Shown here one piece after another: positions 42,292 to 58,509 of a DNA stretch of 64,000 bases; position 1 is the first letter of the stretch; each line of letters opens with the position of its first letter. The DNA lies in contig CAVZJV010000014.1 of the NCBI GenBank assembly GCA_963775685.1, positions 2,272,001 through 2,336,000 of the forward strand, written 5' to 3'. The notes beneath the pieces were generated by a model. The model saw only the letters and a list, made by a program, of their open reading frames with translations. It was not told the origin of the DNA and did no database searches. Made by a program: the position numbers and the translations under genes. This DNA is from Candidatus Bathyarchaeota archaeon (lineage in GTDB: Archaea; Thermoproteota; Bathyarchaeia; Bathyarchaeales; Bathycorpusculaceae).

Positions 42292-43221
42292 TTATTCGAA
42301 AAATTCTTCAAGATATTGCATAACCAAAGCATAAGCCTGCATATCGTCAGGGCCTACTCTGATGTTGTTGCGGTCAATGCTGATTACGGCGCTACCCTCA
42401 TTCTCTCCGACTGGCTTATTGTTCTTGATTCGACAGACACATCGTATAATAGAGTCCGATTGAACCTGAAATGTTAACAAAGGATATTTTACCCCAGACA
42501 AGTGCAAATCGTATTTTCCCAATGCTTTAGGCTCAATTATAAAATGCTCTGTCTCTTCAAGCCGAAGAAGACTTTGTAGGAGTGATCCTTTATACTGAGG
42601 AAAATGAGATTTCAATTTTAATTCAGCTTTTTTTCTAACATCGTTAATTTTTCTGGACAAAGTTTCTGCATCCCAAAGTTCAACATGTAGTTTCTGGGCA
42701 TCTGCAATCGCTTGTTGGGTGAAATATGCGGAGGATAAGACAATTGAATTCTGACACATGTAAGTTTGTTTTGCTAGCATCGACATAAAAATTATTACGT
42801 TCGAAATTTTGTAGGTTTTAGGATACCTTCTGGCTTGAATCACAATTTTCTCGCCGTTTTTCGTAGCAATCAAGTCAACACCAAAAGCCAGTGCGTACTT
42901 TTCTGAGTGGACTGCGTATCCTAGTTCTTCCAACAGCCATATTATGAAATGTTCAAATTCTTTTTCCGAAAGACTCTCAACAGAATAAACTCTATCTTTG
43001 GGGATGCATTCTGATTTACTTGGTTTTTCCAAGATTGTTTTTAATGGTTTTTGCTCTGTTTGCTCCGTTTTTTGGAAGTATTCTTTTTCTATTCTCGAAG
43101 CCAACTCTTCTGCTTTATAATCGGGAAGCTTAAGTTCTATTTGCAGAAGCCCTGCCATGTCGATATTTGAATACTGCTCTACAATTTCTTGTAAGATGCC
43201 GTTAAATTTTAAGAAACGCAT
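42292..43221 (-). CDS. Mrr-like restriction endonuclease domain protein
   Basis: EFEHFIIWLLEELGY, GVDLIA, VIQARRY, FTQQA, VELWDAETL (Mrr_cat). Start taken at MRFLKF. Confidence 0.8.
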   Translation of the reverse strand: MRFLKFNGILQEIVEQYSNIDMAGLLQIELKLPDYKAEELASRIEKEYFQKTEQTEQKPLKTILEKPSKSECIPKDRVYSVESLSEKEFEHFIIWLLEELGYAVHSEKYALAFGVDLIATKNGEKIVIQARRYPKTYKISNVIIFMSMLAKQTYMCQNSIVLSSAYFTQQAIADAQKLHVELWDAETLSRKINDVRKKAELKLKSHFPQYKGSLLQSLLRLEETEHFIIEPKALGKYDLHLSGVKYPLLTFQVQSDSIIRCVCRIKNNKPVGENEGSAVISIDRNNIRVGPDDMQAYALVMQYLEEFFE

Positions 43222-43225
43222 TTTG

Positions 43226-44687
43226 TTACTCCTTTGATTTCTGGAGGCAGTTGGCACATAATTTTTTCCCTGTAGCTTTACAAACCTTGCTTTCATCGAC
43301 TCCGATGATTGATTGGCAGTTTTCACATTTCACAACGTGTTTGGGACAAAGTTTTCGCCTGAATTCTTGGGTAGATGCAAGGTTAGAATTTGAAAAGACA
43401 CTTCCACAGACATCGCAAAGTCCATAGTGGTGGATACATACGCTTGAATTGTCATGACTGCATTTGAATTCTAGAAGCTTGCTGTACCTTTTTCCGCAGA
43501 CCGCACAGACGAACCCTGAATCCTGTTCTATGTATTCATGCAACGTTTCGTCTAGTTTTAAAGCGGCTTTTTTTGAGTAAATTTTTGCAGTGTCGATGGA
43601 TTGTCTAATGCAGCCTTTGCAAACATAAAGGGAATCTTGGGTTGCATATCCCTCAGAGAAAGTGTTACGGCAGATGGGGCAAGTAACTTCTGCGGTATGA
43701 TTAACTCCGACGATGATTGAGGAGTGTATCGTTGCGTTGTTGTCAAGGTTTAATTCAAAACTAATCTTCGAGGTATTGATAACGAGTAAGTTGATGAATT
43801 TTACCTCTATGTTGGTTGCTAACGATTCTTCTTCTCTCTTTAGAAGCGCTTGATAGTTAGCTGGTCTTTTCTGCGCATTAAAATCCTCTTTCTCTATAAT
43901 TAGCTGTTCTAGCCGCTCTCTTCGAAGCCTTTTTTCGTATCTTTTGAGTTTAGCATTTTTTTCTTTGCTAAGCGGTAAGTCAAAAATAATGAGTTTTTCT
44001 TTAAGTAATTTTTCCAACTTTTGGTCAGCGACTTTTTTCAACTCATCAAAAGTGGAAATTTTCAGTTTTGCCTTAAAATCTTGAACATCCAACTGTCCAT
44101 TATCCAAGATATTTTCTTCATCAAGATTTTCGATGTTATCTACTATTGCCTTGCTCATCCATGCCTATGGAAATTATCTCTTCGTTTCGTGGTCTCAACT
44201 TGTTCTTGAATGAAGTTAAATAATAAAATCGATAGTAGCGCACGGGTTCTTTTTTAACTACAGTCACAGAAGCAATTTTTCCATTGTTTATTTGATGGTA
44301 ACATGGTTGAGGGTTAACACAGACACAAGCCACTTTTTCGCCCAAGGTCACCTTGCTACAGTCTTGGCAAGCAAAGACTGAATCCTTAAAGTACTCTTTT
44401 GGAAGTGTCTCAAAATCTTTTTTGGGATTAACTAAAATTTGGCATAGAGCGCCATCTTCTAAACATTCAGTCAATATCTGTTGGAACGTTTGACTTCCAA
44501 ATGTTATTAGCGCTAATTTTTTTTCCCGCGCTATTGCAGGTTCATAAGTGTACTCTGTTGGGTTCATTTGGTTTGGGTATTTTACGGTAAAGACTTCATT
44601 AGATTGTTCTGTTAATTCGCCATTTTTCGATTGGACAAATGACCTGATAAATTGATGAATTTTTGTTTCAGAATATTTTGAGCTCAA
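43226..44687 (-). CDS. YqhG-like protein with Cys/His-rich C-terminus (frameshift near 44150)
   Basis: ITFGSQTFQQI resembles Bacillus YqhG. Two ORFs overlap. The C-terminus has many CxxC/CxxH pairs. Confidence 0.55.
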
Positions 44688-46708
44688 TCAATAACCCCTT
44701 GAGTAAACTTTTCAGCTAACTCCTGATTTTTCCTTGAAACACTCAAATCGTTAGCAAGTTTTTCCAGTTCTTCCTTTATACTTATTTTAGAGTCATTTCT
44801 CAATACAATGCTCATAATTGTTTTCTGTAGGTCCTGTGAGCCTTCTTTTAGTTCAGCTAAAACAGTTTCCATTTTACCAATTGTCATAGTGAATAAGTCT
44901 ATTTTTTGGTATAGAATGTGCAGAACATAGTCGTCGATGGTGTCTTTTATGCTTAGATTGAAGACCGTTACGTCGCGTTCTTGTTTGTACCTATGGATTC
45001 TGCCAATTCGCTGCTCAATTTTCATGGGGTTCCAATGCAAATCATAGTTAAACATTACACTGCAATTCTGAAGGTTTAGTCCTTCTGCCGCAGAATCTGT
45101 TGCGATAAGATATTTGATCCTGCCTTTTTTGAAAGCTGAAATGACGCTGTCTCTTTCGTTCTGGGTCATGTTGCCTAAGTAGACGTCGGCTTCTCCGAAT
45201 TCTTGACATAGAACTTCTTTTAGTTTATGTGCTGTGATTCTTCTGAGACAAAAAATTATCGCTTGCTCATTTGGGATTTCCCTGAGAACCTCTTTTAATA
45301 ATTTAATTTTTGAGCTCCGAACTTGTTTTGCCATCTCAATTAATTTTCCTGTAGCTTGAGCTTCTGAGGGAAACCGCTGTTGCCTTTTCATCAATGATTC
45401 AATTGAGGCTTCGGGGGAGCTGGAAAATGACTGTTGAAGCGCAACGGCTTGAAAAACTAAAATGGCATTGCTTTGGGATTTGCTGAATTTTCGTGTTGGA
45501 TTCTCCGCCATCAACGTCTCAATTGTCCTAAAACTGTTTTTGTATATGTCTCGCAGGTACTCAGTTGCTTTATCAATAAAATTACGTTCGCTCTCATGTG
45601 GCTCAAGCGTTCTAGAATCAACACATCTTTTCGTGAATGGAACGCCAGTTTGTTCTCTTCTGGTACGGCACATTACTTCTCGAAGGGTTTGTCTTAGTTG
45701 ATACGCCCCTTCCGGTTTAACAACTCTGCTCCTCGCGTCTTCCGCAAATCGGGAAACGAATAAGCGTTCACTATCAAAGATTCCTGGTTGAATTAAATCA
45801 ACTATACTGTACAAGTCAGTTAGCCTATTGCATAAGGGAGTAGCTGTAAGAAGCAACAAATGATTTTTCTGAAGATTCGCCAAGCACACTCTTCCTTTGC
45901 TGTGAGTATTTCGAAATGAATGAGCCTCGTCTACAACAATTAAATCCCACGTTCGACTTGCCAACACATCATATTTTCTTGCCATAAGAGTATGAGAGCA
46001 GATAATTCTGTTAGCCGTCTTCAAATCAAGTCTGTGATTGTTCGCAACAGAAAAGGTCTCTCCAAATTTTTCAGCCATTTCAGTCTTCCACTGAGATAGT
46101 AGGCTTTTTGGAGATACAATAAGTATCGAATTAATTTCACCTCTTAGAAGCAACTCTTTAATGATAAGGCCAGCTTCGATTGTTTTGCCAAGCCCCACTT
46201 CATCAGCAAGAATTGCATTTGCGTTCATTTCGTTAATTACTTGAAGAGCAATTTGCATCTGAAAATTATAAGGCACTAGTTTAGCTCGTAAAGTCTCTGC
46301 AGAGATTAACTTGTCAATTTGGCATGAGTCTTTAATCTGTAGTGCTTCTAATTGAAGTTTAAAGTTTCTAAAACTTGAAAATGACCTAGTTTCTAATCGT
46401 TTTCTTATGCTATTTGGGTCAGAAATAGTGTAGGAGTATTGATATCGGGCTTTTTCTCCATCGGCTGTTTCATCTTCAAATTCAAAACTGCGAATCTCAG
46501 ATATAGATGGAACAGACGGTTTGTTATTGGTTTTCTTTCTAATTTTTTTAGCGGGGGGACGCTCTGTTTTGTGATTATCAACTTTATTTGCGGATGATAC
46601 TGTGCTTTGGATATAATTGTATTTTTCACAAGTATTATCATAAGGATTAGGAGTTACCGAATCGGGTGGCTGGCACTCGTTAGTGTTAACTTTGCGCTTA
46701 ACAGACAA
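44684..46708 (-). CDS. SNF2-family helicase (YqhH/RapA-like)
   Basis: ILADEVGLGKT, DEAH, LTATP, AEGLNLQ, WNPMKIEQRIGRIHR. Confidence 0.92.
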   Translation of the reverse strand: MSVKRKVNTNECQPPDSVTPNPYDNTCEKYNYIQSTVSSANKVDNHKTERPPAKKIRKKTNNKPSVPSISEIRSFEFEDETADGEKARYQYSYTISDPNSIRKRLETRSFSSFRNFKLQLEALQIKDSCQIDKLISAETLRAKLVPYNFQMQIALQVINEMNANAILADEVGLGKTIEAGLIIKELLLRGEINSILIVSPKSLLSQWKTEMAEKFGETFSVANNHRLDLKTANRIICSHTLMARKYDVLASRTWDLIVVDEAHSFRNTHSKGRVCLANLQKNHLLLLTATPLCNRLTDLYSIVDLIQPGIFDSERLFVSRFAEDARSRVVKPEGAYQLRQTLREVMCRTRREQTGVPFTKRCVDSRTLEPHESERNFIDKATEYLRDIYKNSFRTIETLMAENPTRKFSKSQSNAILVFQAVALQQSFSSSPEASIESLMKRQQRFPSEAQATGKLIEMAKQVRSSKIKLLKEVLREIPNEQAIIFCLRRITAHKLKEVLCQEFGEADVYLGNMTQNERDSVISAFKKGRIKYLIATDSAAEGLNLQNCSVMFNYDLHWNPMKIEQRIGRIHRYKQERDVTVFNLSIKDTIDDYVLHILYQKIDLFTMTIGKMETVLAELKEGSQDLQKTIMSIVLRNDSKISIKEELEKLANDLSVSRKNQELAEKFTQGVID

Positions 46709-46807: not shown

Positions 46808-47671
46808 CTAAGGCGGCTGAAGTGCTTTTCTCTGCAGAAATGAATTCACTGCATCTATGAGGGCTTCACAAGCAAACCACCGTTCTTCCAAGGATCCATC
46901 TGTCTCCATGTTCTGGATTATTCTGTTGAATTTTTTTATTTCCTCCAAAACTGGCTCCCTTTTTTTATCGTATTCGGCTCGTATTTCCTTTTGCTTGACA
47001 CTAAAATCCAGCATAACCAATTCAAGCTCGGTTTGCTTATCGTTTATTTCCTTCATTATAGCCATTTCTTTTTGTTCTCTTTTCTTCTTGGAAACGCCAC
47101 GGAAAAATCCGGTTTTCATCCGAATTACCTCATCCTGTTCTTTTTTCAGAAGGTTTATGGAAATGTAGAGACTCTTAATTTCTCGGTTTCTTTGACTTTT
47201 AATTGCCCCTGTCAAAGTTGCATATTCTTTATTGATTAGCTTTAGGCGGCTTCGCCAATCTGACAGACAGTTAATTTCTTGGTCAAGTGAGGCTTCCCTT
47301 CGGCGTATGCCTTCAAGATGTTGATCAATATTGGCGAGTGTTTGGGAGCGCTCCCTGACAAATTGTTCATCTGCGATTACGTTAGGGTGAGATTCAAACT
47401 CGCCAAGAACATCCGACAAGCTCGTCAGCCAACGATCAAAATGTTCGCTGAACGGGAAAGAACCAAACTTCTGGATGCCCAAAGTATGGAGCCGCTTAAG
47501 GGTTGCCTCTGAAATCTCTTTTTCAGTTGCAATTGGCTTCTCTTCCTGTACTTGACCAACAATTCCTCTATGTACGCGTTTTCTATCCTTCCTTTTTTCA
47601 CGAAGAGTTTTTTTGTATCCATGAATCGCGCCTCTTGGCGACTTCACACGAGGCTGGTATCCCATAAACAC
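46808..47671 (-). CDS. coiled-coil hypothetical protein
   Basis: Long heptad-rich K/E/R sequence; probable start MGYQP at 47665. Confidence 0.7.
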   Translation of the reverse strand: MFMGYQPRVKSPRGAIHGYKKTLREKRKDRKRVHRGIVGQVQEEKPIATEKEISEATLKRLHTLGIQKFGSFPFSEHFDRWLTSLSDVLGEFESHPNVIADEQFVRERSQTLANIDQHLEGIRRREASLDQEINCLSDWRSRLKLINKEYATLTGAIKSQRNREIKSLYISINLLKKEQDEVIRMKTGFFRGVSKKKREQKEMAIMKEINDKQTELELVMLDFSVKQKEIRAEYDKKREPVLEEIKKFNRIIQNMETDGSLEERWFACEALIDAVNSFLQRKALQPP

Positions 47672-47844
47672 AAGGTATCATCAATGAACTATTTAGTTTG
47701 CGCCTAATTGCCTCAGAATTCGTCTTCTTCCTGATTATTGCCTGACCCTTATCAAGTTTTTCACAGCCCTTGTTTAAGTCAATTTCAGACTGGGGTAACT
47801 CAAACCACAAACATAATAAGTTTAACTCGTGAAAGAAAAGAACT

Positions 47845-48351
47845 GTGAAAAGTATGCCGCAGTTTGTCGTTAATCCAAGCCGAATTGACCCCTACAAGAA
47901 ATTCAAGTTCATAGTAAAGTGGGATGGTAAAGTCGTTGCGGGCGTCTCAAAGATGAGTCCCCTGAAACGAACCACTGATGTCATTCTGCACCGCGAAGGG
48001 GGCGATGCAAATGTGGAGCGGAAATCTCCCGGCAAAACTCATTATGACCCCATCATTCTAGAACGAGGCGTAACACATGACCCTGAGTTTGAAACTTGGG
48101 CTAATTTGGTGTTTAACAAGGGCAATGGTTCAATGTCTCTTAAAAACTTCCGCAAAGACATAGTCATCGAATTGCTAAACGAAGCGGGAGTTCCAGTGAT
48201 TGCTTACAAGGTCTATAGGTGTTGGGTCTCAGAGTATACTGCCCTGCCTGAATTGGACGCGGGTCAAAATGCTGTTGCCATACAAAGTATAACCATCGAG
48301 CATGAGGGCTGGGAAAGAGACACTGGGTTAGCTGAACCCAAAGAAACATAG
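47845..48351 (+). CDS. contractile tail tube protein (T4 gp19/Afp1-like)
   Basis: DPYKKFKF.V, HREGG, KSPGK..YDPIILERG, RKDIVIELLNE, CWVSEY..LDA...VAIQ. Confidence 0.9.
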   Translation: MKSMPQFVVNPSRIDPYKKFKFIVKWDGKVVAGVSKMSPLKRTTDVILHREGGDANVERKSPGKTHYDPIILERGVTHDPEFETWANLVFNKGNGSMSLKNFRKDIVIELLNEAGVPVIAYKVYRCWVSEYTALPELDAGQNAVAIQSITIEHEGWERDTGLAEPKET

Positions 48352-48367
48352 AGGCTCAGAGTAGGAT

Positions 48368-49045
48368 TTGACCTTGCCAAGCCAACCCAACATCCACAGA
48401 GGAACCTTAATACTGCTTGCACCAAACGCTGCAGACGCCTCTATCTCCTCGAAAAATATCTATTTTGTTTTCCAGTACAACCCAGAAAAACTAATCCACA
48501 CCTTCAACCAAAGTATGCCCTCAACATTAGCATCAAACTCGACAGATTCACAACTCCCAATAAATGAGCTTTACAACTTAACTTTTGAACTCGACAGTTT
48601 AGATGCCGATTCGGTTTCTCAGAATCAGAGTTCAACCGATCTTGGTCTCCACCCAACTTTAGCCATGCTTGAGATGATGATGCGACCGCAGGTCGTTGGC
48701 AAACAAAAGTCATTACCCATCGTTGTATTCAAGTGGGGTGCAAAACGATCTGTTGCGGTTCGGTTCATCAGTATGAATGTTGAGGAAAAATCTTTCGACG
48801 TTACCTTGAACCCGACGAGGGCAACTGTTAGCTTAACATTGAGAGTGCTTGACGCTGCCGAGACTGCAGACAACATTGGCGCCAAGAACATTTGTTTGGT
48901 CCATAATAATGTGCTGGCAACTCTGGTTGACGCTTACAAATTCCAAACTAGTCAAGCTTCTGTTCAAGCAGGAAGTGTTTTGGGCGTTTCTGGTACGGCA
49001 GGTGAGGGGTTAAACGTTGAAAGGAAAACAAAATTTGGTCCATAG
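48368..49045 (+). CDS. CIS tube-initiator-like protein (Afp7/Pvc7 type)
   Basis: FQYNPEKL, P.VVFKWG, EEKSFD.LNPTRATVSLTL. Confidence 0.72.
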   Translation: MTLPSQPNIHRGTLILLAPNAADASISSKNIYFVFQYNPEKLIHTFNQSMPSTLASNSTDSQLPINELYNLTFELDSLDADSVSQNQSSTDLGLHPTLAMLEMMMRPQVVGKQKSLPIVVFKWGAKRSVAVRFISMNVEEKSFDVTLNPTRATVSLTLRVLDAAETADNIGAKNICLVHNNVLATLVDAYKFQTSQASVQAGSVLGVSGTAGEGLNVERKTKFGP

Positions 49046-49303
49046 CCCTTTTTTTCTTTGTTGAACAATTTTTTGCTAATTTTAGATTTTGGTTTTTGCT
49101 GTGTTGTTTGCTAAGCTTTAAATCAGGCAAGTAAAAGCTTAGTTGGTTGGTGAGGGGAGCCTGTGAAACTGTTGAAGATCCCCTTTACCTTTCAAACTCG
49201 GGTTTTTTTCAATCGTGAAGTAGGAACAGACTCAACGTTTCTTCCTTAAAACGTCGAGATCAAGATAAATCGGGTTAAAAGATTTCCCTGACGAATTTGT
49301 TTT

Positions 49304-49732
49304 CTATGCTCTATTACCGTAGTTTTTGCTCATGCAACTCTGGCAATAATTTCGCTTAAACCTCTTTATTCGCTTTGGTTGGAAGAGTTTTCCGCATGAA
49401 CTGCATTTTATTTGGTTTACTGTCTTTGGGTCGAGTAGTTTGAGTCTTCGTTCAATCTCATTTTTAATATCTGAGTCATTTTCGGTTATCAATGCATGGG
49501 TTAGTAGTGTCTTTGCTTGATCTTCGCATTTGTCTCCGAACATTTTTGAAAACACATTGTTTTTTTTCTGGTCAACACTTATCTGAGATGGCAACATACA
49601 GATAAAATTTGAAGGATAACTCTTGGATTTATCTGAGTCGACAACGGCAAATCGATAGTGCCTGCCCACATAGTTGCCCTCAACATTATCCTGAGTAAAT
49701 ATTTGTAACTTGAATTTCAATTGAGTGCTCAC
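49304..49732 (-). CDS. hypothetical protein with C-terminal zinc ribbon
   Basis: CSSCGK...YCQSC. Confidence 0.7.
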   Translation of the reverse strand: MSTQLKFKLQIFTQDNVEGNYVGRHYRFAVVDSDKSKSYPSNFICMLPSQISVDQKKNNVFSKMFGDKCEDQAKTLLTHALITENDSDIKNEIERRLKLLDPKTVNQIKCSSCGKLFQPKRIKRFKRNYCQSCMSKNYGNRA

Positions 49733-49837
49733 ACGTATATAGAAAGCACTTGCCCAGCTAATATCTGTAGTTCTTCAGGACTCGATTTTCATCGCTAAAT
49801 TTGTTTAGACAATTGGTAAACCACAAAAAATGTTATA

Positions 49838-50767
49838 TCATCCATTTTGTCTTTTTAGTTTGCCAATGATATTGGCAAAGCCTTTTCTAAAGTCAAATGA
49901 CGCTACGACCTCAGTGAAATTAACGAGGATTAATGACGTTAATGTCAAGGAGGGTATGAGTGCGTAATAGTAAAGTGGTGTAGTTAATCCTGAGCCTAAA
50001 ACCATACTTACAAACCCTGCCCCCATGCCGGGGGAAAAAAGCATCAAATTTGATAAGAACAATGCGGCGAGGCCACTTGCGGATGCGACCTTGAGGTTTT
50101 TGCAGTTGTACATCACAAAAAGAGGAAGAGCCAATAAACCGAACCTTACATCAAAAAATCCCAGTGCCAATGCAATTCCTGAAAAGAATGGTTTGCCTTT
50201 GCTGCCAAGGTATAAGCTGAGGAGAAGCAGAAAGGTAAGTATGACTTTGGCTTGTCCTTCTCCCCATTGCCAATAGTAACTTGGAGACAGGCCCCAATTC
50301 GAAGTTGGGAAGGGCAGTAGCAACGTAATGGTCATCACAGCTAGAGTTACTGCAAGATGCTTGCCGCTTAAGAGCTTGTAGAGCATATAGGCGATTGCGG
50401 GGAGAAGCATAAATTGGATTATGTCAAAGACCAGCAATGCCTTCTGATAACCAAGAGACAGCAACGGTGAAGCAACCAACAGAAAAGAGGGCAGATACTT
50501 ATAGGCTTCAGGATATGGTGGAGTTAAGGGTTCGCCACTGCCTAAAGCGCCGAAATGATAGATTTGCGAGGGATTATGCCAGAGTCTCCAAGCACCAACA
50601 TAGTAGGCGGAGAAATCTTTTGCAAGTATGCTGCCTGAAGTATTGATGCCTGGGCTGGGTGTGTAGGTTTCTGGATACGCCACTATGAAGGTATATAGGT
50701 TTAGGGTGATGAGCAAGGCGACTGCGATGATGAGAATGACTTTGTTTGGGAGTAGTTTATGAGTCAT
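49838..50767 (-). CDS. GT87/DUF2029-like membrane glycosyltransferase
   Basis: KDFSAYY, YKYLP, GQ motif; multiple TMs. Confidence 0.7.
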   Translation of the reverse strand: MTHKLLPNKVILIIAVALLITLNLYTFIVAYPETYTPSPGINTSGSILAKDFSAYYVGAWRLWHNPSQIYHFGALGSGEPLTPPYPEAYKYLPSFLLVASPLLSLGYQKALLVFDIIQFMLLPAIAYMLYKLLSGKHLAVTLAVMTITLLLPFPTSNWGLSPSYYWQWGEGQAKVILTFLLLLSLYLGSKGKPFFSGIALALGFFDVRFGLLALPLFVMYNCKNLKVASASGLAALFLSNLMLFSPGMGAGFVSMVLGSGLTTPLYYYALIPSLTLTSLILVNFTEVVASFDFRKGFANIIGKLKRQNG

Positions 50768-50941
50768 TTTTTCTCAGCGGTGGACTGTTTATGGTTTTAT
50801 TTCACTGTGATGGAAACTTTTATACTTGGTTATTTAGTAAATTGTGTCTAAATGTTCTTGAATGTATTACACTCGTCTTACAGATGAAAATGCTTTTATT
50901 CAATTTCCACTCTGAAGCCTTAAAATGCTCAACTCAAAGGA

Positions 50942-51544
50942 TTGAATCTGAAAATGTTGCAAAAACAAACCAGCGCAAAACGAGCCTCAATAATTGCCAT
51001 GACAACTGCACTCTACGTCGTATTCTTTTTCCTATCCTACTCCGTAACACTACCAAACTTCACTCTCCTCTACCTTCCTATTATTCTGTTAGGCGTTTTC
51101 CCAATATGGTTTGGATGGAGTGGACTTGTGGGCGCCATGCTTGGGGGATTCATTGGCGGTGCTTTTGTCGAAGGCTTAGGTTTTCTGGGAATATTCGAAT
51201 CAGTAGTAGCGCTCCTCATATATCTCGTTAACTGGACACTTATTCCCAAAAAAGCAGCCGAAGACGGAAACAAACTCAACCTAATTGCTCTTATAGGCGT
51301 ACTGACAGTGAGTCTTCTTGCGGGCACAAGTTACATCCTCTTTCAATACACCATTCTACCACAATTATTCACTGCATCCGAAGCGTTATTCATTCTGATT
51401 CCCACGTTCCTGATTAACTTGCCAATTGTCTTGATTACTTGTCCTCTTCTGATTAGGGCTGTGTCGCCTAAATTGAGAACTTGGGGTCTGTACTCCGGCA
51501 ACTTTGCAGAATGGCGAAATCGCAATGCCTCAAAACCAGTATAA
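50942..51544 (+). CDS. membrane protein, possibly an ECF S component
   Basis: AMTTALYVV and FGWSGLVGAMLG; 5-6 TMs. Confidence 0.55.
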   Translation: MNLKMLQKQTSAKRASIIAMTTALYVVFFFLSYSVTLPNFTLLYLPIILLGVFPIWFGWSGLVGAMLGGFIGGAFVEGLGFLGIFESVVALLIYLVNWTLIPKKAAEDGNKLNLIALIGVLTVSLLAGTSYILFQYTILPQLFTASEALFILIPTFLINLPIVLITCPLLIRAVSPKLRTWGLYSGNFAEWRNRNASKPV

Positions 51545-51626
51545 TTTTTCTCCAAAAACTTCTTCCTTTTTTAGAACCTAAGCGCGTCTGCTTGTTCTAA
51601 CCAATGCCAAAAACTATAGTCGCCAG

Positions 51627-52199
51627 ATGGAAAATACTTTTAAGTTGTGGTCCCTTAAGGCACCTGAAGCGTTGAAGATGAAAATCAGAATCCTAAAACT
51701 AACCTCTGAATTTCTGGCTGTATTGCTCAGAGGCAAGACTTTCTCTTTTACCTCAACTTTGCCTCTTGACGCCGAAATTTTAGATGTAAAAATGGATTTA
51801 TTTTCCAAGCAGGTTTCCATAATAGTGAGGAGCGATAGTTTTGAGGATGTTGCCGAGTCCATGCCAATTCCCGAGTTCAACGTTTCAAAAACCGATGAAC
51901 TCAAAAACGAGCCAAAACCAGCTTCGCCAGTTAAAGCTCAAGTTGTACCTGAGTTTAAGCCTACTATTGCAAAGTTGCCTCAGCCGCAACCAAGTCGAAT
52001 GGCCTCAAAAATGGAGAACGAGTTTAGCCCTGAACAGCGCAAACTGCTAAGTTTCACCGTTAAGGAGGACCACGTTGTAGTTAAGCCTGTGATGTTTTTG
52101 AAGGCTGAGTGGGACGACATAAATGAGGTTGTGCGGAGTTTAGGCGGCAGGTGGGTTAAGGGCGACATTATTAGCTACTGGGAAATTCCACTTCTATAA
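51627..52199 (+). CDS. hypothetical protein
   Basis: C-terminal INEVVRSLGGRWV...WEIP domain. Confidence 0.65.
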   Translation: MENTFKLWSLKAPEALKMKIRILKLTSEFLAVLLRGKTFSFTSTLPLDAEILDVKMDLFSKQVSIIVRSDSFEDVAESMPIPEFNVSKTDELKNEPKPASPVKAQVVPEFKPTIAKLPQPQPSRMASKMENEFSPEQRKLLSFTVKEDHVVVKPVMFLKAEWDDINEVVRSLGGRWVKGDIISYWEIPLL

Positions 52200-52268
52200 A
52201 TAGTGTTTTAGTGAGAAACGAAATAACTTTAAACCAGAAACACCTAATTGGAAGCAGAGTGAGCCTAC

Positions 52269-52655
52269 ATGGAAAAAACCGATAAACCATTAACCAGAGA
52301 CGCATTAGTCTCAATGCAAGTTATAGATGCAAAAGGAAAGCTGCTGGGAAAAGTTCAAGATGTTGTTTTCGCCGTTGGAAAAATGGGCATAGCTTTAACC
52401 GTTGAAAATGAAGATGGGGAGACACAAACAGTTGCGTGGGAAGATGTTCAAGCGGCCTCAGACTACATTATCCTAAAACCCGTTACACAGACCACATACC
52501 AGCCACAGACACAACAACAGCAACCTGCCCAAACCGCAACTCAGCCAGTTCAACAACAATCAACTCAACCGCTTTGCCCAACATGTGGCAAACCCTTAAC
52601 ATGGATTCCGCAATACCAACGATGGTACTGCTACAACGACAAAAAATACGTCTAA
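52269..52655 (+). CDS. PRC-barrel protein with C-terminal zinc ribbon
   Basis: VIDAKGKLLGKVQDV, Q-rich linker, CPTCGKPL...WYC. Confidence 0.8.
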   Translation: MEKTDKPLTRDALVSMQVIDAKGKLLGKVQDVVFAVGKMGIALTVENEDGETQTVAWEDVQAASDYIILKPVTQTTYQPQTQQQQPAQTATQPVQQQSTQPLCPTCGKPLTWIPQYQRWYCYNDKKYV

Positions 52656-53053
52656 AACCAATCGTTCATCCTTATTTTTCTTTCTTAAATTTTTTCCAGT
52701 TTATGCCTACCTAAGATTGAGGCTTTAAGTTCTTTATTGCGTTTGGTGAGTGAGCTATCGCCCTCGCGGTTTGTCTCCTTAACAGTTCTTAGACTATTAT
52801 GCTTAACTGGTGATTGTTAGCAAGAGGAGATTTTACAACATCTTTCATGAAGGAATACTTGGGCCCTTTATCGTTTGTATACTGCACGCTTGTACTTTCA
52901 AATAGACTTGGGCAAACCGCTACCTCTCAAGCAACCTACCCCGCCATATATCATTTCAAGTGTAGGTTCAACCAAAAGTTGACTTGGAAAAAAATTATGG
53001 TTAACGAGTCAAAAAATTGGTATTTTTCTCAAAAAACATGCCTATTTGGGTGT

Positions 53054-53680
53054 TTAGTTGCCTATGGGCTTTTCTAAAACGGTAATGTTTCCGTTCTTTC
53101 CTAGTCGCAACTGCTTTTCACCCTTAAACATCGCCACATGGGCATTCTTAACTTCTATAAAGTCACCAGTATGGACGCTATTTATCTGCTGATCCCAGAG
53201 GCAAAGTAGAATTTTTCCTGTTTCATCCCCAATTGACGCGTTAGAAACAACCGCGTTGTCCCGGAACTGGGTGTGAACTTTGGCTGGCTCAGCGGTCTGC
53301 AAAACTTCTGCAGTGACGTTGATTTTTTTCATCCCAACACGCAAGTTCTCAATTTTTAAGTGTGAAGGCGCAGGGTTCTGTCGGGCAATTTCTTTACGGA
53401 TTTTGTTGCTGTCCATTGAGCTGTCAAAGGAAACATCCGTTCTTGCCAAAGTCTCATCAGGTACTCGAAACTGAGCAATTACTTTACCATCTTTTGTAAT
53501 CAAAAAGATCGATTGGGTACTTACGTTTCCACGGTACTCCACATTCAAATCCGTAACTGTAATTGGCTTGCTCTGTTCCTTTGCGTCTATTAAGGCTTGA
53601 AAAAGCTCTGTTGGATAAACCTCATGCTGCGTAGCGATGAATGCAAGCTGATCTTCTAGGGTAGGCTTTTTTGGTTTCAT
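53054..53680 (-). CDS. OB-fold single-stranded DNA-binding protein (RPA/SSB-like)
   Basis: IGDETGKILLCLWD...GDFIEVKNA...FKGEKQLRLG. Confidence 0.82.
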   Translation of the reverse strand: MKPKKPTLEDQLAFIATQHEVYPTELFQALIDAKEQSKPITVTDLNVEYRGNVSTQSIFLITKDGKVIAQFRVPDETLARTDVSFDSSMDSNKIRKEIARQNPAPSHLKIENLRVGMKKINVTAEVLQTAEPAKVHTQFRDNAVVSNASIGDETGKILLCLWDQQINSVHTGDFIEVKNAHVAMFKGEKQLRLGKNGNITVLEKPIGN

Positions 53681-53940
53681 GCTCTATTCTATTCTCCTTT
53701 TAATTTAGCGAATAACCTCGAAATAGCAAACTATTTAACCCTAAAATTTACTTTTTCTAGATTAAATTCCGCAATTTAGTAATATGCCTCGCTCAGTATA
53801 TAGGTGTAACTATAAAAAAATGCGTTTTCCATGGAATAATTGAACATTTGTGTAGGTTTCAAATTAAGGTCTGGTTTTCCAAAAAGGAAAAAGCCCAGCT
53901 TTACAATACATATATAGAGAGATTATTTTGGAGCAAAAAC

Positions 53941-54816
53941 ATGACCGAAAACCTCAAAGACCTGACCAAAGTTGACTTGAAAAACCTCGATAAAATCTTC
54001 TACCCCAAAAACAAAGTAACCAAAGAACAAGTCGTCGAATACTACATCAGAATGGCGCCCAAAATCCTTCCCGTCATAGCGGACCGCCCCTTAGTTTTAA
54101 CAAGATATCCTGATGGCATTGAAGGTGAAACGACGAGTTTTTTCGAAAAAAACGCTCCTGAAGGCACACCTAATTGGGTTAAAATAAAAACAATCTACTC
54201 TTCAACTTCAAAACGAGATGTCAACTACATAGTTTGTAACGACTTGGATACCCTTATTTGGCTTGCAAACTTGGCAGCCCTGGAAATTCACATGCCCTTC
54301 TCTAAAATAGATGCTCTAGACAAGCCTGATTTCCTTTTCTTCGATGTTGACCCTGAACCTCCTGCAACTTTGAGCGACGCCGCCGAAGTTTCACAGCTGC
54401 TAAAAGAGAAGCTCCTCGATTTAGGGCTTACTCCTTACGTTAAAACATCGGGCAAAAAAGGCTTACATGTCATAATTCCCATTGAACCCCAACATACTTT
54501 TGAAAAGACAAGGGCTTTTGTGCATTATATAGGAATCGAACTTGCAAAAAGAAGCAACCTTGTTGTTTCTGAATTTAAAGACACAAAAAAACCGGGCAAG
54601 GTTTTTGCCGATTATTTGCAGAATTCTTCTCTACGAACAATGGTTATTCCCTACAGTTTGCGCCCAACGCCTGACGCCACCGTTTCAACGCCTCTTGAAT
54701 GGAGTGAAGTAAAGAGAGGCATGAATCCTTCTGATTACACAATTTCAAGTGTAGCTAAACGGACCAATAGTCCATGGAAAGACATTTTTGAGAAAAGAGC
54801 CATCTTGAAGATATAG
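53941..54816 (+). CDS. LigD primase-polymerase domain (stand-alone)
   Basis: RYPDG, FFEK, DVDP, KTSGKKGLH, DYLQN, PYSLR, STPLEW. Confidence 0.92.
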   Translation: MTENLKDLTKVDLKNLDKIFYPKNKVTKEQVVEYYIRMAPKILPVIADRPLVLTRYPDGIEGETTSFFEKNAPEGTPNWVKIKTIYSSTSKRDVNYIVCNDLDTLIWLANLAALEIHMPFSKIDALDKPDFLFFDVDPEPPATLSDAAEVSQLLKEKLLDLGLTPYVKTSGKKGLHVIIPIEPQHTFEKTRAFVHYIGIELAKRSNLVVSEFKDTKKPGKVFADYLQNSSLRTMVIPYSLRPTPDATVSTPLEWSEVKRGMNPSDYTISSVAKRTNSPWKDIFEKRAILKI

Positions 54817-54895
54817 TTTTTCAGAGTTGGCTAATCTTTAAAAGTCATACCTTATTTTTTGCTATTTAGACCATATATTCTTTGGGTGTGTAGTT

Positions 54896-56104
54896 ATGCA
54901 GTACCGGATTGTACCAAAAAACAACGACAAACTCTCCGCTCTCGGTTTCGGATGCATGCGTCTGCCTATGAAAGGGCAAGTCGTCGATGAAGAACGTGCC
55001 ATCAAACAAATCCGTCTCGCAATAGACAACGGCGTAAACTATGTTGACTCCGCTCCACCCTATCATATGGGAGAAAGCGAAAAAATCCTCGGTAAAGCTT
55101 TGCTTGATGGCTACCGAAACAAAGTAAAAGTCGCAACAAAACTCACTCCCTTCATGCTTAGACGTGCCGAAGACATGGAGAAAATGCTCAACCTGCAACT
55201 GCAGAAACTTCAAACTGACCACATAGACTACTACCTTTTACATGGGTTAGAGGCAGAGTTTTGGAAGAAAATGCGGGGATTTGGAGTTCTAAAATTTTTA
55301 GAGAAAGCAAACGATGAAGGAAAAATCGTTAACATGGGCTTTTCCTTTCATGGTTCACTTTCAACTTTTAAAGAAATCATCGGAGCCAACGATTGGACCA
55401 TGTGCCAAATCCAATACAATTTCCTTGACGAAAAACTGCAGGCAGGTACTGAAGGTCTCAAGTATGCTACTTCCCAAAAGCTTGCGGTTATGGTCATGGA
55501 GCCCCTACGTGGCGGCTGCTTAGCTAATAAACTGCCCAACGAAGCCAAAAAATTCTATGATAATGCAGCAATTAAGCGAAGTCCAGCTGAGTGGGGGCTA
55601 CGGTGGGTTTGGAATCATCCCGAAGTAACCCTTGTGCTTTCAGGTATGAACGAGGAAAGCCAAGTGATAGAAAACATTAGAACTGCTAAAACAGCCCTTC
55701 CAAACTCCATGAAACCAGACGAACTCGAAGTGATAAAACGGGTTGATGACGCCTACCGAAAACTTCTCAAGGCCCCTTGCACAGGGTGCCAGTACTGCAT
55801 GCCTTGCATAAATGGCGTAAACATCCCCCGCAATTTCCAAGCCTACAACGAATTGTATCTGTCAGGCGACGAGCAACAAACCCGCAGCATGTACGCCATG
55901 TTTCTGATGGGTGGTTTGACGGGTACACGGGCGGATGCAGCGTTGTGCAAGGGCTGTGAAAAATGTTTAGAACGTTGTCCACAACACATAAACATCCCTG
56001 AGAAACTAAAGGAAGTTGCCAAAGACTTGGGCGGTCCCAAAGCGGAAGAGGCTATTGCCGCTTTGAAAAACAACATAGCGCAGTTCCCAAATAGAAAACC
56101 ATAA
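54896..56104 (+). CDS. aldo/keto reductase with C-terminal 4Fe-4S domain
   Basis: LGFGCMRLP, IDYYLLH, MEPLRGG, CTGCQYCMPC, CKGCEKCLERCP. Confidence 0.9.
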   Translation: MQYRIVPKNNDKLSALGFGCMRLPMKGQVVDEERAIKQIRLAIDNGVNYVDSAPPYHMGESEKILGKALLDGYRNKVKVATKLTPFMLRRAEDMEKMLNLQLQKLQTDHIDYYLLHGLEAEFWKKMRGFGVLKFLEKANDEGKIVNMGFSFHGSLSTFKEIIGANDWTMCQIQYNFLDEKLQAGTEGLKYATSQKLAVMVMEPLRGGCLANKLPNEAKKFYDNAAIKRSPAEWGLRWVWNHPEVTLVLSGMNEESQVIENIRTAKTALPNSMKPDELEVIKRVDDAYRKLLKAPCTGCQYCMPCINGVNIPRNFQAYNELYLSGDEQQTRSMYAMFLMGGLTGTRADAALCKGCEKCLERCPQHINIPEKLKEVAKDLGGPKAEEAIAALKNNIAQFPNRKP

Positions 56105-56242
56105 AATGAATCGGTTGGAACATGCCTTTAGTTAAGAGCGCCTCTTCTGCTTCATGATGTCGGGGATTCAGAAAAAGGTTAAACCCTTGAAGACGTATAG
56201 TTTATTTTAAGCAGATTTTGACGGTTTTGGAGAGTTAAAATT

Positions 56243-57079
56243 TTGAGCTCAGAGCAAGAAGAACAAGAAAATATTAATCAGCCTGAAGAGAAAACCAGTG
56301 CTGCTGCCCCCAGCAGGTCCATTTGGTCAGGAAACATCACCATTGGCTTGGTGAATGTTCCTGTAAAGTTATTCTCTATGATCTACGATAAGGGCATAAC
56401 TTTTCATTTTTTGCATAAAGTAGACGGTCAACCCCTAAAATACGTAAAAATGTGCACCAAAGACGACAAAATAGTACCCTGGAACGAGGTTGTCCGCGGC
56501 TACGAGGTCGCCAAAAACGAATATATAACCTTTGACCAAAAAGAACTCAACAGTGCCAAACCCGAATCTGACAGGCGCATCCGCATAAGCAAATTTGTCG
56601 ACTACTTCTCTGTGGACCCCGTTTACTTTGACCGAACATATGCTTTGCTTCCTGACAAAAGCAAAGATGCCTACAGTCTACTTTATAAGGCATTGGAAAA
56701 AACTAACAAAGCTGGTGCTGCACGGATAACCTTGCGAACCAAAGAATACCCCGCGCTTCTCCATACATACAAAGGTGCATTGGTCCTAACTACTCTTCGT
56801 TACGCTTACGATGTCGTTGACCCGGCCGATTTTGAGCCCCTGCATAAACTTGAGACGCCGCAGAAAACCGAATTAGACCTTGCCATTAAAATCGTCACAG
56901 ACCTCTCAGGTGAATTTGACATAACAGAATTCGAAGACACCTACCTTAAACGCGTCCAAGAACTGGTCAAGCAGAAGGTAAAAGGAGAAAAAATCCACAT
57001 AGAGAAACCTCCAGAAATTGAAGCTAAAAGTCTCATGGTTGCTCTTCGAGAAACCCTCAAACAGTTGGAGCAAAAATGA
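56243..57079 (+). CDS. ku: NHEJ DNA end-binding protein Ku
   Basis: RSIWSGNITIGLVNVPVKL, VRGYE, DPVYFDRTY, LMVALRETL. Confidence 0.93.
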   Translation: MSSEQEEQENINQPEEKTSAAAPSRSIWSGNITIGLVNVPVKLFSMIYDKGITFHFLHKVDGQPLKYVKMCTKDDKIVPWNEVVRGYEVAKNEYITFDQKELNSAKPESDRRIRISKFVDYFSVDPVYFDRTYALLPDKSKDAYSLLYKALEKTNKAGAARITLRTKEYPALLHTYKGALVLTTLRYAYDVVDPADFEPLHKLETPQKTELDLAIKIVTDLSGEFDITEFEDTYLKRVQELVKQKVKGEKIHIEKPPEIEAKSLMVALRETLKQLEQK

Positions 57080-58509
57080 GTCGACACATCTATCGCCCTA
57101 TGCTTGCAAAGGTCGCCGAGGAACCTTTTTCCGATAAAGACTGGATTTTTGAAGTAAAATGGGATGGATTTCGGGCAATAGCCTACGTTGAGGAAGCCTA
57201 TAGCCTAAAGAGCCGAAACGAGAAAGAGCTAAAACAAAACTTTCCAGAACTATACGAACTAAACAAACTAGCCAGCAACATCGTGGTTGACGGCGAAATC
57301 GTCGTTATGCGAGAAGGCAAACCAGACTTCCAATCCCTTCTCGAACGCGGTCAAGCAGTTTCGTCGGGTGAAATTCAAAGGCAAGCAAGTAGGGCACAAG
57401 TCGTTTACATAGTCTTTGACATACTGGAAAAAGATGGAAACCCACTCACCACGTTGCCTTTGATGGAACGCAAAGCGATCCTTAAGGATTCGCTTAGGGA
57501 GGGTTCGAATGTGCTTTTGTGTGATTTTATCGAGGAGAAAGGTGAAGCCTATTTTCAGTCGGCTTTGGAGAAGGGTTTGGAGGGGATTGTGGCTAAGAGG
57601 AAGAATGGTGAGTATGAAGAAGGTTTGCGGACGGGGAGTTGGTTGAAAATAAAGAAACTCAAAACATGTGACTGCGTAATCTTCGGTTACACTCGGGGGA
57701 CAGCGATTAGGGCGCAAACTTTTGGTGCCCTGCTTCTTGGCCTCTACGATAAAGAGGGCAAACCAGTTTACGTAGGTAAAGTTGGTACGGGCTTTACGCA
57801 GAAGACGATAGGCGTTTTAGCTGATAAATTTGAAAAAATAAAAATCGATGCCGCGCCATTCAAGCCCGAAGCTGGCGACGTAGTGACTTGGCTTGACCCC
57901 AAACTGGTCTGTGAAGTGGCTTATCAAGTGTTAACAAGGGACATGAGGTTGCGTATGGCGCGGTTTAAGCGTTTAAGGGATGACAAGCAGCCCTCAGAAT
58001 GCACAATCGACCAGATTGTTGAAGCCAAAAAAACCGAAACATCTGCCCCCATCGACGACGACAAGCTTTTCGATTATGCAGGGAAAAGACATTTTGAGGA
58101 AACACCAGAACCAAGAGCTACTGTTGAAAAAAAGGAAGACAAACTAATCTTCGTAATCCAAGAGCACCACGCACGAAGGCTCCACTACGACCTAAGATTG
58201 GAAAAGGATGGGGTTTTGAAGAGTTGGGCGGTTCCCAAAGGCATACCTGAGGCTGGGAAAAAGGTTTTGGCTGTGGAGGTCGAGGACCATCCTTACGAAT
58301 ATGCCAGTTTTGCGGGTGAAATCCCAAAGGGGCAGTATGGGGCTGGAACGGTGAAAATCTGGGATAAGGGGCACTATGAAGCCAAACTGTGGGAGGGCGA
58401 CAAAATTGAGTTTACCTTAGATGGTGACCGCCTCAAGGGACGCTACATTCTGGTGCGGCTAAAGCGGGCGAACGACAAAGATTGGCTCCTTTTAAAGGGA
58501 AAAGAATAA
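57076..58509 (+). CDS. ligD: LigD ATP-dependent ligase fused to C-terminal 3'-phosphoesterase domain
   Basis: EVKWDG, EGIVAKR, WLKIK, VGTGF, then FVIQEHHARRLHYDLRLE..SWAVPKG. Confidence 0.92.
   Translation: MSRHIYRPMLAKVAEEPFSDKDWIFEVKWDGFRAIAYVEEAYSLKSRNEKELKQNFPELYELNKLASNIVVDGEIVVMREGKPDFQSLLERGQAVSSGEIQRQASRAQVVYIVFDILEKDGNPLTTLPLMERKAILKDSLREGSNVLLCDFIEEKGEAYFQSALEKGLEGIVAKRKNGEYEEGLRTGSWLKIKKLKTCDCVIFGYTRGTAIRAQTFGALLLGLYDKEGKPVYVGKVGTGFTQKTIGVLADKFEKIKIDAAPFKPEAGDVVTWLDPKLVCEVAYQVLTRDMRLRMARFKRLRDDKQPSECTIDQIVEAKKTETSAPIDDDKLFDYAGKRHFEETPEPRATVEKKEDKLIFVIQEHHARRLHYDLRLEKDGVLKSWAVPKGIPEAGKKVLAVEVEDHPYEYASFAGEIPKGQYGAGTVKIWDKGHYEAKLWEGDKIEFTLDGDRLKGRYILVRLKRANDKDWLLLKGKE

Follow-up and report, generated by a model that had tools for sequence, protein, structure and literature searches.

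Two genes of contractile injection system (CIS) type lie side by side in a metagenome-assembled genome (MAG) of a soil archaeon of the Bathyarchaeia – one coding for an inner-tube protein and the other for a tube initiator – and are the subject of this study. The window, by which we mean the whole stretch of DNA analyzed, covers 64,000 nt (G000:C14:2272001-2336000) of a 3.06 Mb assembly in 14 contigs that is rated 96.9% complete; in labels of this kind, G denotes a genome, C a contig, and L a fetched locus. Direct reading and Pfam matches establish that both open reading frames (ORFs) are intact and that a T-tract lies 3′ of the second stop codon. No further CIS or phage gene is present in the window: Pfam searches of 30 more window ORFs returned cellular families only (cytochrome c/FixO, histidine kinase, CbiMQO, LarC, LigD, and others), and a tblastn search with 2293 ORFs from 53 sheath-linked extracellular contractile injection system (eCIS) loci matched the window only at the pair and at one generic multi-copy ATPase-like protein. 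With only cellular families among the other ORFs, the observation of an orphan tube and initiator pair, made in a preliminary description of this DNA, is confirmed, and the interpretation offered with it is partly supported. The nearest public loci to the pair are from Candidatus Bathyarchaeota or Bathyarchaeia MAGs.

The product of the first gene (ORF1; Table 1) matches PF06841 Phage_T4_gp19 over profile positions 2-134 of 134 (E 6.8e-44, 149.4 bits with a cut-off of 28.2) and TIGR02241 with 148.7 bits (cut-off 62.4), and it falls far below the equivalog cut-offs of CIS1_fam (55.9 versus 220) and CIS5_fam (57.5 versus 260). A search against solved tubes in the PDB gave matches to All3324 (7b5h; 6.8e-15), which is the tube of the Anabaena thylakoid-anchored contractile injection system (tCIS), and to the AlgoCIS tube (7adz; 3.1e-14), with weaker matches to Afp1 (1.4e-5) and Pvc1 (7.8e-5). 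Eleven of 15 orthologues are 165 aa long, the ORFs of the other four opening further upstream, and the 165-aa orthologues align from the ATG at 47854, which is therefore the probable start codon. Identity to the window copy is 77-91% among congeners, 62-76% for bacterial tubes, and 62-71% for the tubes of sheath-linked or complete clusters. The motif ACCACAAAC(A/G)TAATAAG upstream of the gene is kept in 11 of 11 species in an alignment of the 100 nt 5′ of the tube gene, where only this block and the start region are conserved; the DNA further upstream is unalignable. The motif resembles an archaeal promoter of the B recognition element (BRE)/TATA type, and we infer that it travels with the pair.

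The second ORF spans 48368-49045 on the forward strand and closes with a TAG stop codon (49043-49045). Its second TTG, at 48374, is probably the start, as orthologues begin there, giving a protein of 223 aa with a tube-fold domain at about residues 1-160, a helix at 168-191, and a disordered tail at 199-223. It matches PF19266 CIS_tube (E 3.2e-7, 30.7 bits with a cut-off of 27), and a family profile built from 35 sequences (A1) matches 9rce_H (5.3e-9), All3321 (2.5e-3), Afp7 (0.017), and also Pvc7 in the PDB. Foldseek searches with an AlphaFold2 (AF2) model (predicted local distance difference test [pLDDT] score 79.3) placed chains of baseplate or tube-initiator entries at all of ranks 1-9 (E 1e-6 to 8e-6, template modeling [TM] scores 0.37-0.46), with 8kea_P, 6j0n_b (Pvc7), 7b5h_AK (All3321), and 6rao_G (Afp7) as the named initiators among these nine; Afp5 and Hcp appear in the list only at E values of at least 0.014. 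A Pfam search at E values up to 1 found no LysM domain in the initiator. The chain names 9rce_H and 9gtp_P indicate a C-terminal LysM in some initiators, but LysM is not a defining feature of this clade, since the four cluster-encoded relatives that were scanned also have none. The gene is not located beside a spike or hub gene, as its flanking genes are unrelated and the genome has no Phage_GPD or Phage_base_V match. Initiator identity to the window copy is 49-65% in congeners. A T7 run begins three bases past the stop codon, within a T-rich stretch that is terminator-like for an archaeon. The PF19266 model is too weak for genome scans, having missed this very ORF in a six-frame scan of its own genome, and profile A1 was used in its place for scans across the genus.

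Both genes are conserved and constrained. The tube and the A1-defined initiator are adjacent in 22 of 101 genomes of a single genus, the congeneric sample used throughout. The dN/dS ratios (omega; Nei-Gojobori method, NG86) were calculated against 14 orthologues per gene; omega for the tube is 0.03-0.07 in 13 of the 14 comparisons (dS was not computable for one) with a median of 0.07 over 75 pairs, and omega for the initiator is 0.06-0.25 in 13 of 14 with a median of 0.16 over 50 pairs, values that are approximate because dS is about 1 or saturated. Omega is thus far below 1 for both genes, and the relaxed selection that the preliminary description had named as the sign of a remnant is not seen; the strong purifying selection, the occurrence of the pair in 22 congeners, and its repeated origin (see below) fit best with a domesticated tube filament among the options that were proposed there. 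Clustering of the ORFs within 7 kb at 21 pair loci revealed no conserved third gene beside the pair beyond local synteny.

A whole-genome Pfam scan shows that the window tube is the only tube in this genome, and that there is one sheath match (C14:220.6 kb). The sheath gene lies at C14:220.2-221.3 kb, 2.1 Mb from the pair, and the region aligns end to end with the 358-aa one-domain sheath of G014 when read through three +1 insertions (frames 1 to 2 to 0 to 1); conservation extends over every segment, and no further stop codons occur. Frame changes affect nine of 98 orthologue-like genes in the assembly, and four of these nine are the sheath gene and its three neighbors within about 4 kb. As these four cluster in a stretch that is otherwise well conserved, the sheath frameshifts are probably local indel errors in the assembly consensus, and calls of broken genes in this genome need care. 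Across the frame-changed stretch (G000:C14:220.2-224.5 kb; L003 15234-19400), the four adjacent genes keep 60-90% identity to orthologues that are intact. A soil sequencing run contained 14% of the sampled words, and its two 151-base contigs (L003 15835-15985 and 16292-16442) lie outside the three shift sites.

Few other CIS parts are recognizable in the genome. A weak gp25-like match is provided by an 87-aa ORF (C14:1492251-1492511; L007 10252-10515) that abuts a DDE transposase and has no match in 100 congeners; it is a relic. Contig C12 carries a short AAA gene (about 190 aa) that has one frame change and is 67-73% identical to a 196-aa AAA gene in G002, which sits there beside a second tube; the full-length AAA ATPase (Afp15) was not found in the host genome. 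A Baseplate_J match at C14:1548.5 kb was rejected as a pyridine-nucleotide disulphide oxidoreductase. Pfam scans of the genome gave no match for the spike families or for the cap family Pvc16_N, a model whose controls gave no match yet which matched 39 of the 101 genus genomes. Across the genome, the tblastn search with the 2293 ORFs of sheath-linked loci and phmmer searches with 136 ORFs from five complete congener eCIS clusters (G006, G101, G063, G045, and G072) recovered only the tube, the initiator, the sheath pieces, the C12 AAA fragment, and the gp25-like scrap, and the J proteins of the five clusters have no match in the host. The search for sheath, gp25, baseplate J, and VgrG that the preliminary description had recommended therefore yields a sheath with frame changes and a scrap of gp25, and neither J nor spike. 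The suggestion of a split eCIS holds insofar as the sheath and a short AAA gene are encoded at other loci of the genome, but with J, spike, and cap not found in a 96.9%-complete assembly, this is not a complete system that was split; nor was a complete eCIS that could use the pair found elsewhere in the genome.

The genus as a whole shows a similar picture. By raw counts that ignore shared ancestry, 34 of the 101 genomes have both a sheath and a tube, six have a sheath only, 12 a tube only, and 49 neither. Complete clusters are rare, as gp25 matches occur in 11 of the 101 and Baseplate_J in seven. Among the 22 pair genomes, none has Baseplate_J, two have gp25 debris, and 16 have a sheath match. 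The sheath is unlinked to the pair in 15 of these 16: the distance is 506 kb in G014, a genome in one contig, and 733 kb in G111, and in the other genomes the sheath is on a different contig. In nine congeners the orphan one-domain sheath stands alone among cellular genes whose order is partly conserved, and its omega is 0.09-0.15 in the eight pairs, out of 28, for which dS was usable. When the G014 sheath was co-folded with its tube, the score was 0.00, compared to a mark of 0.32. Degraded full clusters are also present in congeners, for instance at G054:C9 and in G048, where there are stops inside the tube.

Other small modules are built from related parts. In G054, G059, and G104 the gene directly 3′ of the tube codes for an initiator fused to an eCIS-type AAA domain (384-391 aa), which ties the initiator to that ATPase; in G054, a divergently oriented 363-aa sheath gene adjoins the tube and the fusion. 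A second type of mini-module, with a different tube type directly followed by a Pvc16_N cap, is present in 12 other congeners (L034 9160-10234 in G008, for example), 11 of which have a sheath match. In these modules the tube is about 150-160 aa and the cap about 195-205 aa, with no baseplate and with the sheath elsewhere. About 17 congeners that have no tube or sheath match (e.g. G016:C5:505243 and G053:C5:711412) encode Pvc16_N-domain proteins of about 290-320 aa, a family that looks like another domesticated CIS part.

The loci fetched with the tube protein bear on the origin of the pair. In 53 of 80 loci a sheath gene is directly upstream of the tube, with an initiator homologue 5-10 kb downstream in 17 of these, and 21 of the 80 have an initiator next to the tube and no sheath beside it. 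On a tree of 81 tubes, the state in which the initiator is adjacent and the sheath is not requires six changes, at least two of which well-supported branches make unavoidable. The clade of Bathyarchaeia pairs (13 rows, support 98) has an Ignavibacteriales pair as its weakly supported sister, and a Burkholderiales trio forms a separate pair clade (support 99); the pair lineages have long stems (0.34 for the Bathyarchaeia clade, 0.47, and an end branch of 0.71). These changes and the separate clades show that reduction to a tube and an initiator is recurrent, bacteria included. The pair would descend from eCIS clusters with a sheath, a tube, and a more distant initiator, which are common in Chloroflexota, Cyanobacteriota, and Pseudomonadota. 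A viral origin was rejected, as only four IMG/VR loci were found (62-65% identity) and the tube lies within the eCIS clade and not among viral tubes. The tube of the Ignavibacteriales pair shares 76% identity with the archaeal tube, and that pair is directly followed by a metallo-β-lactamase (MBL)-fold hydrolase with a lamin-tail domain (L046 11044-12519); the pair in a Gammaproteobacteria MAG is directly followed by a TIR-TPR protein (L114 11155-13362).

We put at about even the chance that the pair is part of a reduced and dispersed CIS-derived set that has no baseplate. The set predicted from these genomes would consist of the tube and initiator at one locus and an unlinked one-domain sheath of about 358 aa with partly conserved synteny, to which a short AAA domain, separate or fused to the initiator, may be added in some genomes; baseplate, spike, and cap would not belong to it. 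The pair itself would form a self-contained module running from the promoter-like motif to the terminator-like T-tract. How the parts would act can be proposed from the roles of the tube, initiator, and sheath families in solved CIS structures. A hexamer of the initiator would template the first ring of tube hexamers, the tube would then polymerize, and – where a sheath is made – the sheath would polymerize around the tube. To our knowledge, every characterized contractile injection system has a baseplate and a spike among its encoded parts, and in known systems the baseplate lets the sheath assemble in a high-energy extended state. Because there is no gp25/J baseplate and no spike, the assembly could not be a classical target-triggered injector, and the product is more likely to be an intracellular filament, of sheath and tube or of tube only, that has a structural function or holds cargo. 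More broadly, it is possible, although we incline against it, that in this genus and independently in some bacteria the eCIS has been cut down to three or four scattered parts that build a non-injector sheath-tube filament; on that tentative view a one-domain sheath and a tube would be joined by a single end-binding factor, either the initiator or the cap, and sometimes by a short AAA domain.

Several points weigh against a dispersed set with a sheath. A sheath match is missing from six of the 22 pair genomes, and completeness is at least 90% in five of the six; among five bacterial genomes with a tube-initiator pair, a sheath is present elsewhere in two and absent from three. The existence of such sheath-less pair genomes, both in the genus and in bacteria, means that the pair may work without a sheath. 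The counts of sheath and tube occurring together are uncorrected for ancestry. T4 and type VI secretion system (T6SS) sheaths assemble in the contracted state when a gp25-type sheath initiator is missing, which makes it difficult to envisage a functional contractile device. If the three insertions in the sheath gene are real, the host genome has no working sheath. A baseplate may be formed by proteins that have diverged beyond recognition, and the tube has stayed so similar to the tubes of complete clusters that such constraint might perhaps be expected only inside a complete machine.

The main rival explanation is an autonomous tube-initiator module that needs no sheath and forms capped rings or short tubes, for instance as an Hcp-like holder or chaperone; the co-occurrence with a sheath would then reflect shared ancestry only. 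We regard this as rather doubtful, although the sheath-less genomes of both groups speak for it, as do the long stems of the pair clades, which suggest changed constraints after leaving the cluster. It is harder to reconcile with the sheath in 16 of the 22 pair genomes, with purifying selection on that sheath, with the presence of a tube in 34 of the 40 sheath-positive genomes (16 by way of the initiator pair and 11 by way of the tube-cap pair), with the G054 arrangement in which the sheath adjoins the pair, and with the 62-71% identity that the tube still shares with sheath-linked tubes. A reading of the pair as the decaying residue of an eCIS that was lost, with no present function, is very unlikely and largely refuted by the selection data, with omega far below 1 in every computable comparison. 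The CIS debris in the host genome (the gp25-like 87-aa scrap, the AAA gene with its frame change, and the sheath with its three) and the degraded full clusters of congeners are what a remnant would predict, but both ORFs are full length with lengths like those of their orthologues, the pair is adjacent in 22 genomes and keeps its promoter-like motif in all 11 species aligned, the same arrangement arose repeatedly, and dS values of about 1 argue against recent transfers of one element.

It is also improbable that a complete eCIS exists with its genes scattered or on unassembled or unbinned DNA. Some DNA must be missing from an assembly of this completeness in 14 contigs, sheath and AAA genes do lie elsewhere in the genome, and split loci are described in PMC6899500; against this, neither Pfam models nor congener homologues detect J, spike, or cap in the genome, the single-contig pair genomes G014, G111, and G057 have no Baseplate_J or Pvc16_N match, and Baseplate_J is absent from all 22 pair genomes. 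The preliminary description also raised the prospect that the pair disrupts or senses viral tail assembly as an antiviral decoy, acting with a neighboring SNF2-Mrr operon, which we now consider highly improbable. The neighbors do resemble defense parts (a DrmD/BrxH/ZorD-like helicase and a ZorD-like Mrr nuclease), and two bacterial pairs are followed by defense-like genes (the TIR-TPR gene of L114 and the MBL and lamin-tail gene of L046). However, when the linkage was checked in other genomes, SNF2 or Mrr homologues were found beside the pair in none of 35 other loci, which leaves a joint action with the helicase-nuclease operon unsupported. Other pairs adjoin SRP54, pyruvate:ferredoxin oxidoreductase, or URO-D genes, neither pair protein matches any PADLOC model, and the tube belongs to the eCIS clade and not to viral tubes, with the four viral-contig loci at 62-65% identity as the only ones found.

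The SNF2-Mrr genes are neighbors and not part of the tube module, and since they are not beside the pair in relatives they probably represent an inserted defense island. They are encoded on the opposite strand to the pair, as had been noted, but the pair's immediate divergent neighbor is a basic coiled-coil-rich ORF of 287 aa, with the SNF2-Mrr genes behind it (Table 1). This ORF occupies the same divergent position in L040, L041, and L043 (65-76% identity) and is 9 kb from the pair in G012, a case of local synteny among close relatives. PADLOC models match the helicase as DrmD/BrxH/ZorD-like and the nuclease as like the C-terminus of ZorD, and the set looks as if a ZorD-type helicase-nuclease had been divided among separate genes. 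Flanking synteny extends only to the nearest relatives, with the downstream region 49304-58509 conserved in G012 and partly in L040 and L043.

Table 1. Coordinates of the tube-initiator pair, its flanking features, and the initiator-AAA fusions of congeners (window positions unless a locus is named).
Feature	Position	Strand	Basis and remarks
Upstream motif ACCACAAAC(A/G)TAATAAG, 17 nt	47804..47820	+	Alignment of 11 species; center about 38 nt 5′ of ATG
CIS inner-tube protein (Afp1/Pvc1/Cis1 type), 165 aa	47854..48351	+	PF06841, TIGR02241; ORF opens at GTG 47845 (ORF1 47845-48351)
Tube-initiator protein (Afp7/Pvc7/Cis7 type), 223 aa	48374..49045	+	TTG start; PF19266, PDB profile, Foldseek
T-rich stretch after stop, putatively terminator-like	49049..49100	+	Read from sequence; T7 49049-55, T6 49069-74, further runs
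Basic coiled-coil-rich ORF, 287 aa, no family	46808..47671	-	No Pfam or PADLOC match; shares intergenic region with pair
SNF2 helicase (674 aa), two no-family ORFs (183 and 310 aa), Mrr-type nuclease (344 aa)	42292..46708	-	Pfam SNF2-rel_dom/Helicase_C, Mrr_cat; SNF2 gene 44684-46708 (-), Mrr gene 42292-43326 (-)
Initiator-AAA fusion, G054	L142 9847-11001		PF19266 + PF00004
Initiator-AAA fusion, G104	L143 8747-9922		PF19266 + PF00004
Initiator-AAA fusion, G059	L144 8965-10140		PF19266 + PF00004

Further from the pair, the window encodes a FixO-like mono-haem subunit fused to two cytochrome c domains (829-2418, +) of the cbb3-oxidase type; members of the Bathyarchaeia are usually described as anaerobes. 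A LigD primase-polymerase (53848-54816, +) and an ATP-dependent ligase with a phosphoesterase domain (57076-58509, +) are about 2.3 kb apart and suggest a repair set of the non-homologous end joining (NHEJ) type. Between them are an aldo/keto reductase (54896-56104) and an ORF at 56243-57079; this ORF and the two LigD genes have orthologues in the same order in G012, where the reductase has none.

This lineage keeps a tube, an initiator, and a sheath unlinked and under purifying selection, and its genus also contains alternative mini-modules in which the tube is paired with a cap or the initiator is fused to an AAA domain. These genomes thereby offer a natural test of what a sheath-tube pair does without a baseplate and of how archaea domesticate phage-tail parts. 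If such parts do build a non-injector sheath-tube filament, the result would count as a new class of intracellular structure derived from a CIS, comparable in kind to the step from a phage tail to a T6SS or a tCIS; if the pair is only a selfish or neutral passenger, its interest is modest. Surveys that define eCIS loci by gene context, such as that of Chen et al. 2019 (PMC6899500), would probably miss dispersed reduced sets. A 321-aa one-domain sheath homologue in a Bathyarchaeota MAG is reported in PMC9230969, the available portion of which does not discuss its gene context. No published account of tube and Pvc16_N cap pairs was found in the literature searched, nor one of orphan tube-initiator pairs, although the split-locus supplementary tables of PMC6899500, which were outside the search, may list comparable cases.

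The window pair can be compared with several known arrangements. The tube-cap pairs of congeners are likewise two-gene tube modules unlinked from a one-domain sheath, but their tube is of a different type (about 29-36% identical) and the cap attaches to the other, distal end of its tube. In split eCIS loci and T6SS-iv (Chen et al. 2019; PMC6899500), CIS genes are similarly spread over more than one locus; those loci jointly hold the core set, whereas here the core baseplate, spike, and cap are undetectable genome-wide. The orphan hcp/vgrG/PAAR islands of T6SSs, as PMC13098142 presents them, also have a tube-family gene and an end-binding partner away from the main cluster, often in variable contexts. 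They differ in that the tube is paired with a spike and usually feeds a complete T6SS, whereas the partner here is a tube initiator and no main machine was found. The eCIS and CIS clusters (Afp, PVC, AlgoCIS, Anabaena tCIS, and Streptomyces CIS) have the initiator 5-10 kb downstream of the tube in 17 loci, whereas here the two are adjacent, the sheath is 2.1 Mb away, and J, spike, cap, and full-length ATPase were not found. The proteins themselves resemble those of these clusters: the window tube is 62-71% identical to tubes that directly follow a sheath gene (53 of 80 loci), and the window initiator has the Afp7/Pvc7/All3321 fold, in a clade whose cluster-encoded initiators are also without LysM.

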